Shown one piece after another: positions 37,877-43,051 of a DNA stretch of 64,000 bases. Source of the stretch: Eledone cirrhosa (lineage: Eukaryota); assembly GCA_964016885.1 (NCBI GenBank), contig OZ024761.1, forward strand, positions 28,210,001 to 28,274,000, given 5' to 3'. The notes below the pieces were generated by a model. That model was given only the letters and a program-made list of their open reading frames with translations, was not told where the DNA came from and ran no database searches. Position numbers and translations under genes: made by a program. Positions within the stretch are counted from its first letter, which is position 1. Every line of letters starts with the position of its first letter.

Positions 37877-38535
37877 TGTAGGAGATGAGTTTTATTGTAG
37901 CACAATAAAGCAATGCAAATATCGGATAAGTAGCACTCTACAGTTTGTAGGACTGGAGTATAAATAATATAAGATCAAAAGATGGTTAAAAGAGTTCCAA
38001 GTATTTTATTATGCGCATTTAAAAAACAAATATCATGGGATGATATCTGCGTTCTCATCAGATAAAATAGGGAGACATGATATGAAGCTTAAAAAACACT
38101 TGTGCATAAAAAACACTTGTGAATAAAAAACACTTATGAATAGTGAAGTTTTAAATCAACATATCATATGTTGATTTAAAACTTCACTATTCACAAGTGT
38201 TTTTTATTCATAAGTGCTTTTTAAGCTTCATATCATGTCTCCCTATTTTATCTATGGATAGTGCAGTTTTAAATCAACATATGTTGATTTAAAACTGCAC
38301 TATCCACAAGTGTTTTTAACCTTCATATCATGTCCTCATATTTTATCTGATGAAAATACAAATGTTATTGCATGATGATATTTGTTTTTGAAATGCACAT
38401 AATAAAATACATGGAACTCATTTAACCATCTTTTGATCTTATATATTATGTATACTCCAGTCCTACAAACTGTAGAGTGCTTCTTATCCGATATCTGCAT
38501 TGCTTTATTGTACTACAATAAAACTCACCTCCTAC

Positions 38536-38536
<1 letters not shown>
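37877..38536. mobile_element. ~660 bp fold-back element with nested palindromes and hammerheads
   Basis: Diverged inverted arms, internal palindromes near 38110-38215 and 38261-38300, and a hammerhead motif in each arm. Confidence 0.7.
38341..38407 (+). ncRNA. Hammerhead ribozyme in the right arm of a fold-back element
   Basis: ttttat-CTGATGA-stem II-GAA-ATGCACAT-A-ataaaa; degenerate mirror copy on the minus strand near 38004-38067. Confidence 0.65.
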
Positions 38537-38566
<30 letters not shown>

Positions 38567-38637
38567 CATATATATATACATACATATATACATATATATA
38601 CATATATATATATATATGAATAAATAGACCAGGATTT

Positions 38638-38697
38638 TTTCATTCTGATGATTGAAAGCAAAATCTTTTGCTTTTAAGAAACCACTGGTAAATGGAA
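38638..38697 (+). ncRNA. Type I hammerhead ribozyme, intact core
   Basis: tttcatt-CTGATGA-ttgaaagcaaa(atct)tttgcttttaa-GAA-ACC(act)GGT-A-aatggaa: 7 bp stem I, 11 bp stem II, 3 bp stem III, GUA cleavage triplet. Confidence 0.85.
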
Positions 38698-38761
38698 TAA
38701 TTGCCTTATGTTGTTTATTACATAACTATATATATATATATAAATATATATATACACACAC

Positions 38762-38824
<63 letters not shown>

Positions 38825-38837
38825 TATATACACACAC

Positions 38838-38908
<71 letters not shown>

Positions 38909-38945
38909 CATACATATATATATATATATATACATATATATACAT

Positions 38946-38985
<40 letters not shown>

Positions 38986-39354
38986 GATAAGTAAAACCAC
39001 TTAAGTAATGAACCACATCATCACCATATCATCCAATCACAATAAGCTGGTGTAAACCTCAAATGAAAATGTCCAATTGTTGATGTATCCAGACATCTTG
39101 AAATTGTCTGAAGACGCTAAAAGACCATTTATTGACTGAAATATGGCGGCTGCGAAAGGTCAGAAGCTTCGTCTTCATACAACATGCCAGAACGGACATT
39201 ATAGCAATATTATTAGACAATTTTTGACAGCACACTTTGGTGACAACAAGCGTAATCAATCAAACTCTTAAAGCTTGTTGTGACCGACCAAACATACTGG
39301 AGGTGTTCATCAGTTAATGTGATTTTGATAAATTTTCACATATGTATATGTGTG

Positions 39355-39415
<61 letters not shown>

Positions 39416-39453
39416 CATATATACATATATATATATACATATATATATACACA

Positions 39454-39487
<34 letters not shown>

Positions 39488-39548
39488 CATATATATATAT
39501 ACATATATATATACATATATATATATATAAATAAATAGACCAGGATTT

Positions 39549-39608
39549 TTTCATTCTGATGATTGAAAGCAAAATCTTTTGCTTTTAAGAAACCACTGGT
39601 AAATGGAA
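39549..39608 (+). ncRNA. Type I hammerhead ribozyme, second copy of 38638-38697
   Basis: Same sequence as 38638-38697, again immediately after a (TA)n tract. Confidence 0.85.
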
Positions 39609-39658
39609 TAATTAGCCGTCGAAACGGCTTGAGCTCAGCCGCCGGGGTCTTACTTGTT

Positions 39659-39729
<71 letters not shown>

Positions 39730-40190
39730 GTACATGCATATATTGTATATGTATAAGTATATGTATATGTATGTATATATGTATATAAATTTCATTTTTT
39801 ATTTCATTTCATTTTACGTCCGCTTTTTCCCTGCTTGCAAGGGTGGGATGGGAACTGATTCTGGCTTGATTTCTACAGCTGGATGCCCTTCCTAACACCA
39901 ACCTCATTTACAGTGAGTGCTGGGTGCTTTTTTGCCGTGGCACCTCCACGACCACTTTGCAGTGGAATGATAGGGACCCCAGTCCCTATCATCTCATTTC
40001 TACAGCTGAGTAATCTGGAGCAATGTAAAATAAAGTGTCTTGCTCAAGGAAACAACACATCACCCAGTTTGAGAATTGAACTCACAACCTTTTGATTGCA
40101 AGGCCAATGCTCTAACCACTAAGCCATGTGTCTCCATATGTATATATATATATGTGTATATGTGTATATATATATATGTATATATGTATA

Positions 40191-40727
40191 CTTTTAAACT
40201 TTATTTTGAAATTTTTTCTTATTTGCTAAACCTTGATTATATATGTTCTGCCTCGTTAATTTATTAACCTGCCATTGAACCACATTGGCATATGGTTGGA
40301 CAATACATGTGTCCCTAGACGCTTTTTGCGTGTAGGGATATATACTTTATTATTATTATTCTCCTCTTAGCCGAGATAAAATTTGGTCGTTCGGTCTGCT
40401 GCTATTTATAGTGGTAGTAGACTGACCTCCCTGCCTCTGCTTCTATCTTTACACACGGCACTGGACAGAATTGCTTCCACATCATTCATTCTCATCTCAG
40501 GAACAATTTTGAATAGCGCCAGTTCGTAATTTGAACTCGGGAATTTTATATTCTCCGAGTGAAATGACCCTTCTGACGAGAGTTTATCTTTTCAATGGAA
40601 GGCCGCAAGGACTGTCCATTTATTTTTGAGACTCGAAACCGATTCGGTAAAGGTAACCATAGTGAGTACAGTGAATCTTTTAAAATTTATTTTGAAACTT
40701 TTTCTTATTTGCTAAACCTTGATTATA
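40191..40727 (+). mobile_element. Terminally redundant, hammerhead-containing non-coding element (retrozyme/Penelope-like)
   Basis: ~50 bp direct repeat at 40191 and 40677 (period 486), intact hammerhead at 40569-40653, and TA-rich flanks. Confidence 0.65.
40569..40653 (+). ncRNA. Type I hammerhead ribozyme with extended stem II
   Basis: cctt-CTGACGA-gagttt...aatgga..ccGCAAgg..tccatt...agactc-GAA-ACCG(att)CGGT-A-aagg; canonical core and GUA triplet. Confidence 0.8.
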
Positions 40728-40765
40728 TATATATATGTATATTTGTATATACATATATATATATG

Positions 40766-42052
40766 CGAGGGGGGATCAAAAAGTTCGCTGAATTTTTCAG
40801 AAAATATTCTATTTTTTAAAAAATATGATTTATCTTCAATTTATTTTTCTACACAGTTGCCATCCAGGTCAATACACTTCACAAGGCAATGCTTCCAGCT
40901 TTGTAAGGCGTCTCTAAAGAAAGTTGAAGGCCTTGTTCGAAGCCATGTGTTGGCAGTGTTTTTAGCTATTCAACACCACTAAAACGGGTTCCCTTTAGCA
41001 TTTCTTTGAGTTTTGGAAAGAGGAAAAAGTCTGATGGGGCTAAATCTGGACTATAAGGCGGGTGAGGAAGCACTTCCCATCGAAATTCTCGAAGAACTTC
41101 TTTTGCAACCCGCGCAGATGCGCTGGTGCATTGTCATGGTCAAACATGATCCCACCATGAAGTTTCCCTTTTCGTTTCTTGACTAATGCCTCTTTCAGCT
41201 TCCTTAAAACATTTGCATAGTAAGCTCTTGTCACAGTTCTTTGACCTTCAAGATAATCTATTAGTATCACCCCATCCGAATCCCAGAAAATGGTGGCCAT
41301 CACCTTTTGATCCAACTTTTGAGATTTGAACTTGATTGGCCCCGATGATCCACATGGAAGCCACTGTTTTGACTGCTGTTTGGATTCAGGATCATACTGG
41401 TAGATCTAGGTTTCATCTCTGGTGATGATTCTGGTCAGGAAATGCTCTTCATCAACTTCAATTTTGTTTAATATCGCCAAAGACAAATCACTTCGAAAAA
41501 ACGCTTTTGGGACACATCGCGCTGAAAGCTTGCTTAATCCCAAATTATCGTGCAGAATTGAATTTTCCGAACCATATGAAATGTCTAGGGACTTAGCTAA
41601 CTGATTAACTGTTATTCTTCGATCTTCTTCAATTAAAGTCTGAGTAGCCTCAACGTTTTGGTCATTTTTTGATGTTCCTAGTCTTCCACTGCGATGGTCG
41701 TTTCAAGGTCGTCTCTCCCTTGTTTGAATCGATGAATCCACTTGTAGACTGCAGTTTTCTTTGGAGCAGTAGTACCGTAAACTTTAATTAAAACCTCCAT
41801 AATCTGTGCCCCTTTCCATTTGAGTTTCACCAGAAACTTGATATTCGATCTTATCTCAAAATAACTATTTTCCATTGTTCCAAAAAGAGGTTTTTTAAAG
41901 AGAGTCAGTACTGTACAATAGTCCGTGCATTGACTGCAAGTGACTAATAGCAAGGTAAACACCCAGTGACAATGTTCTGACATGTTTAATATTGTTTTAA
42001 CCTATTTTTTTCTTACTACGATAAAATTCCGCGAACTTTTTTATCCCCCCTC

Positions 42053-42053
<1 letters not shown>
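40766..42053 (-). mobile_element. Full-length but degenerate mariner (Tc1/mariner, DD34D-type) transposon
   Basis: ~30 bp TIRs (cgaggggggatcaaaaagttcgc / gcgaacttttttatcccccctcg) with a TA flank on the right. Minus-strand transposase motifs include an HTH N-terminus, ITRDET, HDNAPAH and YSPDLAPSDF, broken by frameshifts and stops. Confidence 0.92.
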
Positions 42054-42083
<30 letters not shown>

Positions 42084-42703
42084 CATGCATATATTGTATA
42101 TATATATGTATATGTATATATATTTATGTATATAAATGTATATATATATGTGTATATGTATATATGTATATATAAATATATATATGTATATATATACATA
42201 TATACATATACACATATATATATACATTTATATACATATATACATGCAGGGAAGAGCAGACGTAAAATGATGATGATGATGTATATATGTATATATACTA
42301 TATGCATGTATATGTATGCATATATATATATATATGTACTTTACTTACGATATAAATCTTACTTGTAGTTTTTCTACTTATTTCTGTCAAATGATAAATT
42401 ATTGCATTCGTTGTTTTTTGTCATCCTGTCACACACTCTCTCTCACACACACACCACACACACATATATATATATATATCTATGTATGTATGTATATATA
42501 TAAATCATTGCATTCTTTTTTTTTTTGTAGTGGTATCATATATATAATTATAATATATATATAAATTACTGTATTCATTTTTTGTCATCTTTCCACATAT
42601 ATGCATGTATATATATATGTATATATATATATTTATATATATATATTCATATTTATATACATATACAAATTTATATACACATATATATATAGACACACAC
42701 ACA

Positions 42704-42737
<34 letters not shown>

Positions 42738-42770
42738 TGTGAGAAAAACCACAGTCCCCCATCTCAACTC

Positions 42771-42810
42771 TCCTTTTGAAAAGCAGAAGAACTGCGAAAC
42801 CGGTAAAGGA
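42771..42810 (+). ncRNA. Hammerhead-like motif with divergent core (TTGAAAA); second copy on minus strand near 46415-46455
   Basis: tcctt-TTGAAAA-gcag(aagaa)ctgc-GAAACCGGTA-aagga, then AATAAA; stems intact but core non-canonical. Confidence 0.5.
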
Positions 42811-42945
42811 ACCAAATAAATAAATATATATTTTTTCAAAAAAAGACTCCAGTTGCATTTTTGATTTCATCTTTTTTCCTTATACTTTCACTCGTGTAGG
42901 ACACCTCGGTAATTTTTCATTTTGTAAAAAAACCCTCACTTTCTT

Positions 42946-42997
<52 letters not shown>

Positions 42998-43051
42998 ATA
43001 TATACATATATATATACACACATACATATATACATACACACACACCCACAC

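Follow-up and report, generated by a model that had tools for sequence, protein, structure and literature searches.

A non-coding hammerhead repeat of Eledone cirrhosa with the genomic footprint of two-site priming, likely mobilised in trans by a Penelope-like element

In a 64,000-nucleotide stretch of Eledone cirrhosa DNA (the window; positions 28,210,001 to 28,274,000 of contig OZ024761.1, assembly GCA_964016885.1) we identified a copy of RZ1, a high-copy and young family (95-97% identity) of 486-nt non-coding units with a hammerhead ribozyme motif. With good though not full confidence, we propose that RZ1 is mobilised in trans by the reverse transcriptase (RT)/GIY-YIG enzyme of a Hydra-type Penelope-like element (PLE), probably from circular RNA. 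Its insertions show a clear genomic footprint of PLE-type two-site priming, behind which we infer a PLE partner, a protein dimer, an RNA circle and an active ribozyme. The window copy itself is an ordinary, decayed and 5'-truncated member of the family.

The window copy spans 537 nt and is flanked on either side by TA-rich microsatellites. Unit coordinates (q1-q486) are given for the whole family as window position minus 40190. The sequences at 40191-40241 and 40677-40727 are identical at 49 of 51 positions with a period of 486 (BLAST E 1e-18 to 1e-20), and the terminally redundant 486-bp monomer described in the initial annotation is therefore real. The features of the copy are as follows.

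40127..40190, no strand: left (TA)n-rich microsatellite, the insertion target (from sequence)
40191..40676, plus strand: single full 486-nt unit, subfamily alleles 1C-6A-127A-202C-378C
40191..40241, plus strand: redundancy copy 1 (51 nt), whose left edge, q1, is a random 5' truncation point (5' ends of other copies are scattered across the unit)
40240..40353, plus strand: 'tail' bounded by the short (q~50-54) and long (q~163) 3' ends, a strongly structured RNA (from end mapping and fold)
40245..40280, plus strand: bulged hairpin 1 (GUUC..UU GAAC), 5 nt beyond the short end; a private change at q61 weakens its upper stem
40307..40343, plus strand: long hairpin inside the tail
40360..40376, plus strand: site corresponding to bulged hairpin 2, 6 nt beyond the long end; the hairpin is disrupted here
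40569..40653, plus strand: type I hammerhead ribozyme motif, predicted cut after 40649 (from sequence and constrained fold)
40594..40620, plus strand: GCAA-capped sub-stem inserted in helix II (from constrained fold)
40677..40727, plus strand: redundancy copy 2, stopping at the RZ1 short 3' end (the presumed reverse-transcription start) and abutting (TA)n
40728..40765, no strand: right (TA)n-rich microsatellite (from sequence)

The copy holds no credible open reading frame, as had been claimed at the outset: the only two ATG frames encode 35 and 74 aa, and both extend into the flanking microsatellite. The GC content of the region (40001-42000) is 0.37. A redundancy of about 50 nt is present in the window copy but is not a fixed property of RZ1: among other copies longer than one unit, the overlap varies between a few and more than 600 nt. 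The window copy is an arm of 537 nt with the short end, and the 51 nt of its redundancy represent a single random outcome. Having a single hammerhead, the window copy cannot by itself release a monomer, and with its damaged hairpins it is likely a dead end.

Other repeats lie around it. At 39850-40125 lies a repeat of very high copy number, probably a tRNA-derived SINE, whose minus strand gave a tRNA-like match (40065-40128, 30.3 bits in the Rfam scan), and 37900-38530 holds an element with long terminal and internal inverted repeats, resembling a fold-back MITE. On the other side, the minus strand of 40766-41500 resembles what we take to be a decayed mariner/Tc1 transposon.

The canonical hammerhead with a GCAA-capped sub-stem noticed in the initial annotation lies just before the second redundancy copy. 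Stem I pairs CCUU (40569-72) with AAGG (40650-53), the core consists of CUGACGA (40573-79) and GAAA (40635-38) with every core base canonical, stem II pairs GAGUUU with AGACUC around the sub-stem, and stem III is a near-palindromic helix of 4 bp (ACCG-AUU-CGGU); the predicted cut site follows GUA 40647-49. With helix I of just 4 bp in this copy and a branched insert of ~43 nt in helix II, the helices depart from the textbook form. An Rfam search over 38000-43000 returned no hammerhead at E<=5; apart from the tRNA-like match, the remainder of the scan gave miRNA matches driven by microsatellites. The hammerhead is also not the lowest-energy fold, either in the linear sequence (z 0.74 for 40550-40680; -19.9 kcal/mol when forced vs -21.0 unforced for 40560-40665) or in the circular RZ1 monomer. 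Core positions are 95-100% invariant across 116 RZ1 loci, and within RZ1 the conservation of the hammerhead is no higher than that of the rest of the young unit. The best sign that selection may have preserved it comes from the sister family RZ2, which has an intact core with different stem sequences. According to the accessible text of PMC4209133, PLE hammerheads have a short helix I and a longer helix II and may act as dimers, and according to that of Li, Clavereau and Pollet 2026 (10.64898/2026.07.22.740005) cleavage was absent from 8 of the 9 Xenopus retrozyme dimers assayed.

The genome was searched over 3.0 Gb in 1796 contigs. An exact RZ1 24-mer matched 309 times, compared with 0 for the control, and a genome search gave 2615 candidates, of which 40 were scored, the best full-length matches being 93-97% identical. 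The locus is thus not single-copy but has hundreds of relatives, including dimers and one trimer (G000:C4:28721048-28722559) with a 486-nt period, the multimers that the initial annotation had suggested looking for. An integrated copy of a ~486-nt unit, as first proposed, is supported by this family, with the refinement that its DNA ends are not, in our reading, set by the ribozyme. In three sequencing runs, whose contigs are of one sample, the repeat was high-copy and polymorphic.

RZ1 comprises several subfamilies. Subfamily alleles agreed within the same arm in 111 of 120 comparisons (60 expected) and were common to both arms of an insertion in 95 of 114 (57 expected). Such sharing between arms is as expected if both derive from one RNA or one subfamily, and it does not separate a circle from a homogeneous multimer. 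Private variants common to the repeats of one arm, considered as a sign of a single circular template, were likewise uninformative (4 shared vs 92 unshared), being swamped by change after insertion.

The ends of RZ1 insertions carry the footprint. For end mapping we used the first 100 listed of the 309 24-mer matches (contig C1 and part of C2), which correspond to 81 loci; a segmental duplicate was dropped, a locus of overlapping insertions set aside and an insertion seen twice counted once, leaving 80 insertions. Because this sample requires q460-483, very short arms are under-counted in it. The 3' ends fell at two sites ~110 nt apart, one short (q~50-54) and one long (q~163, range 154-170), and mostly abutted (TA)n, while the 5' ends were scattered over the whole unit. 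Among the 41 insertions in a single orientation, 31 had the short end, 6 the long end and 4 ended elsewhere. The other 39 of the 80 were head-to-head insertions. Both outer ends could be classified in 34 of these (in 5, one end was unclassifiable), and all 34 paired a short with a long end (P 6e-11 if independent at 0.5). RZ1 therefore has the fixed 3' ends, the optional one-sided tail, the variable 5' truncation and the inverted 5' arm of a non-autonomous PLE. The short 3' end is separated from the upstream hammerhead cut site by ~80 nt and seems to mark a PLE-type start of reverse transcription.

Both ends are followed by structured RNA. The fold of 40240-40360 had a z of -4.89, with 0 of 200 shuffles as good. 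A bulged hairpin, described as a YUC/GAR stem with a U-led bulge of 1-2 nt on the 3' side and an upper stem, was present 3-6 nt past the mapped end at 11 of 11 ends in six families (both ends of RZ1, RZ2, A, B and F, and the short end of D), where 2-5% would be expected by chance per 9-nt window. The idea arose from the first eight sites and the descriptor was fixed after D and F had been seen, so that the 11 of 11 do not amount to a blind test; the match at the long end of F, moreover, requires an 85-nt span with a one-pair upper stem. A blind test on RZ3 gave no descriptor match at the mapped end, although a CUC/GAG stem is found there. In the window copy, hairpin 2 is disrupted by differences from the RZ1 majority at q179 and q181, and its motif is present in the unit of locus L031. 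The hairpin is a candidate start signal of reverse transcription.

Candidate partners exist in the same genome. PLE A is a young autonomous element with an intact frame of 714 aa, and PLE B a very young one with a frame of 832 aa and within-locus repeats that are often 99.6-100% identical. Both proteins carry RWR, DKT, CxCX5C, CxxC and CxH. The Hydra clade, in the accessible text of PMC8557442, is marked by RWK, DKT, CxCX5C, CxxC and CxH, (TA)n targeting and hammerheads; with RWR replacing RWK, PLE A and PLE B agree with this description, an assignment made by motifs. In Pfam, PLE A matched no family and PLE B none above cut-off, and one homolog had a GIY-YIG match. The pairing of one short with one long end recurred in 14 of 15 cases in PLE A, 8 of 10 in PLE D, 9 of 9 in hammerhead family F and 5 of 5 in RZ2. 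The tails of the autonomous elements measure ~90 nt in A and ~165 nt in B.

Published descriptions point in the same direction as far as their accessible texts go. PLE insertions consist of partial tandems that are truncated at the 5' side and carry an inverted arm, and the tail is often confined to one of the two ends (PMC8557442 and its preprint); the optional tail on one inverted repeat is also reported in PMC3846280. In vitro, a PLE begins reverse transcription at two internal sites that bound the tail, cleavage is unnecessary for insertion, and the protein is predicted to be a dimer (PMC11167929).

The hammerhead-like motifs of the two candidate partners differ from the hammerhead of RZ1. 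In PLE A (L031 4674-6818, minus strand; L064-L093), CAGAAGA replaces CUGANGA in every copy matched by a pattern that allows either. PLE B (L159-L164, L166) has a hammerhead-like motif with the core CCGUAGA in the copy examined.

Of the four PLE families whose terminal regions were compared with RZ1, only PLE A and PLE B showed similarity, which was weak and AT-rich, with scores of 58 (shuffle maximum 48) and 57 (47). We also considered chimeric arms as a pointer to the partner. At locus L033 (338-4800), an RZ1 short-end arm and a 5'-truncated PLE B arm, the latter apparently carrying the long end, meet head to head with no TA between them, which represents either a co-insertion or a nested insertion; at L031, among the top matches, RZ1 is joined head to head to RZ3. 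This pointer was abandoned, as there is one such case each, nesting is possible, and 0 of the 41 single-orientation insertions of the end-mapping sample were joined at their 5' junction to an arm of a known family.

Other repeat families accompany RZ1 in this genome. RZ2 (L095, L129-L158; G000:C3:255006713-255028667) is a sister retrozyme of 553-556 nt. Its homology to RZ1 reaches from the hammerhead as far as the long end (score 87; shuffle maximum 46); its core is intact, its helix III palindromic, and its helix II extended in a similar way with a different sequence. At the last of the loci named its matches extend over ~22 kb, the first 10 kb holding 18 hammerhead cores in tandem. The repeats of L095 had been tried as the terminal repeat of PLE family C, a reading rejected once they proved to be RZ2. 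RZ3 (L031 7029-8032, minus strand; L310-L339) is a non-coding unit of 731 nt in tandem, for which a single 3' end was mapped, in (TA)n. It lacks a canonical hammerhead core, having a hammerhead-like 3' half, and in 30 loci no adjacent inverted arm was seen. The window also holds, at 38619-38728 and 39530-39661, two short 5'-truncated copies of hammerhead family F. Their cores, at 38645 and 39556, go with a palindromic helix III; the family has 2070 candidates genome-wide, and some of its copies run on into an RT ORF.

We envisage the following cycle for RZ1. By analogy with known retrozymes, a locus with at least two hammerheads would be transcribed, and the transcript would cleave itself to the 486-nt monomer, which would be ligated to a circle. 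A PLE protein would then nick (TA)n DNA and begin reverse transcription at an internal position of the RNA, a few nt upstream of either bulged hairpin; in this step the fixed ends are observed and the part played by the hairpins is proposed. Copying would run backwards, past the hammerhead site and around the unit, and stop wherever the enzyme happens to fall off, leaving the read-through and random 5' ends that the insertions display. Often both target strands would be primed, one per start, and the two cDNAs would join head to head; the rule of one short and one long end is observed here, and a dimer seated on one RNA would be a way to produce it. The window copy would have begun at the short site and run for 537 nt.

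The form of the template is the point on which the main alternative differs. Each of 108 arms (one counted twice) was measured: the median was 349 nt, 24 exceeded 486 nt and 2 exceeded 972 nt, and 99 crossed the cut site at least once. From the two starts a cleaved linear monomer could yield only ~80 or 190 nt, so that the template was either circular or a multimer left uncleaved. The second of these would be a linear transcript of dimer or trimer loci, or of arrays that escaped detection, copied by the same PLE enzyme, with a slow or silent hammerhead and without any circle; in our estimate it is the less likely of the two, although it deserves serious weight. It would explain why 5' ends show no clear excess at the cut site in either the 108 arms (8 stops at q454-464 vs 4.7 expected) or the 309 copies (homology lost there in 5), and it agrees with the unfavoured hammerhead fold, with unprocessed RNA being the main substrate of the anole PLE in vitro (PMC11167929, accessible text) and with the long array of the sister family RZ2, which does appear in the assembly. 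Each insertion, however, loses the RNA just downstream of the start, so that a linear route should shorten the multimers at every round, with the unit that bears the start hairpin lost, unless an array feeds it; yet several subfamilies have given arms of 2-3 units. With a trimer query, no other locus matched beyond ~1,220 nt and no RZ1 array exceeded 3.1 units among the 40 scored of 2763 candidates. By inference only, read-through, arms longer than a unit and the lack of a long array among the scored loci favour a circular template.

Alternatively, an autonomous PLE might be the source, the unit being no more than its terminal repeat (pLTR plus 5' UTR) in detached form and the copies being truncated fragments of that PLE. 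The autonomous PLEs here do share its order of hammerhead, short end, hairpin, long end and hairpin, and short 5'-truncated PLE fragments are abundant in the genome. Full RZ1 units, however, join head to tail with a 486-nt period and without an ORF, and the RT ORFs near copies are separate neighbours, set off by TA runs or head to head and never continuous with the unit on its strand, which makes this reading improbable; a descent of RZ1 from a pLTR is plausible, with the unit now moving on its own. A local or target-site duplication with a chance hammerhead-like motif might seem to suit the AT-rich flanks, the Rfam result and the 20 places in the window that fit a loose CUGANGA..GAAA pattern. 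It is, however, refuted as a duplication by the hundreds of dispersed copies and by the redundancy, which is internal to the element and recurs at every unit junction, and chance hardly accounts for a motif in which all three helices pair and whose core and helices are retained with other sequences in the diverged RZ2; we give this explanation practically no weight. Mobilisation in trans, probably of a circle, thus remains our preferred account of RZ1.

A bolder version of this account, which we advance tentatively and rate at somewhat under even, is that RZ1 is a minimal parasite that mimics PLE RNA. It would consist of a circle-making hammerhead and two hairpins, each seating one subunit of a dimeric telomerase-like RT, with both (TA)n strands primed at once from one circle and the portable hairpin common to Hydra PLEs and retrozymes. 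If so, the hairpin would suffice for the integration of any small circular RNA at (TA)n. The accessible texts of PMC7229834 and 10.64898/2026.07.22.740005 base their proposal that PLEs mobilise animal retrozymes on co-occurrence and on similar terminal repeats, and leave the mechanism open, which in the latter (2026) includes the copying of these RNAs into DNA; that of PMC11167929 leaves the later steps of PLE insertion unvalidated. RZ1 offers a countable footprint in this respect: each arm uses one of two fixed starts, the cut site is read through, and no source array appears among the scored loci. A small candidate RNA signal and intact candidate enzymes in the same genome make the trans-mobilisation of ribozyme circles directly testable in vitro.

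In terms of class, RZ1 is a new family of a known kind, the animal non-LTR retrozymes, every testable feature of which it shows: a type I core with helices I-III, a non-coding unit of low GC, a dispersed multicopy family co-existing with autonomous PLEs, and tandem units each with a hammerhead. Under the definition in the accessible text of preprint 10.64898/2026.07.22.740005, the window copy alone, with its one hammerhead, is a 'monomer'. RZ1 does not belong to the plant-type LTR retrozymes, which have a type III hammerhead in two fixed LTRs; its motif is type I, and its terminal redundancy is of variable length and holds no hammerhead. A literature search covering mainly openly accessible main texts listed nothing on cephalopod retrozymes, hairpins at PLE start sites or retrozyme ends of this kind.

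As far as the accessible texts of PMC7229834 (Cervera and de la Pena 2020) and the preprint describe them, animal non-LTR retrozymes share with RZ1 a non-coding unit with a type I hammerhead, low GC and no LTR, an arrangement from monomers to short tandems, and PLEs alongside. The 486 nt of RZ1 fall within the 51-972 bp range of the preprint and exceed the circles of 170-400 nt in PMC7229834, from which RZ1 also differs in its branched helix II insert. Two fixed 3' ends, head-to-head arms and start hairpins are absent from the retrozyme descriptions in these two texts. The Hydra clade of C-terminal EN+ PLEs (Craig et al. 2021, PMC8557442, accessible text) shares with RZ1 (TA)n targets, 5' truncation, partial tandems, an inverted 5'-truncated arm, a one-sided tail and a hammerhead near the 3' end, whereas RZ1 lacks an ORF and has a tail of ~110 nt rather than 30-40 bp. 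The Poseidon PLE of Anolis (Frangieh et al. 2024), in the accessible text of PMC11167929, likewise has two internal RT starts that bound a tail, AT-rich targets and an upstream hammerhead. Its starts, however, lie in an AC-rich stem-loop inside the ORF, while those of RZ1 lie in U/A-rich linkers of a non-coding RNA, just before a bulged hairpin of the CUC..U(U/C)-GAG type.
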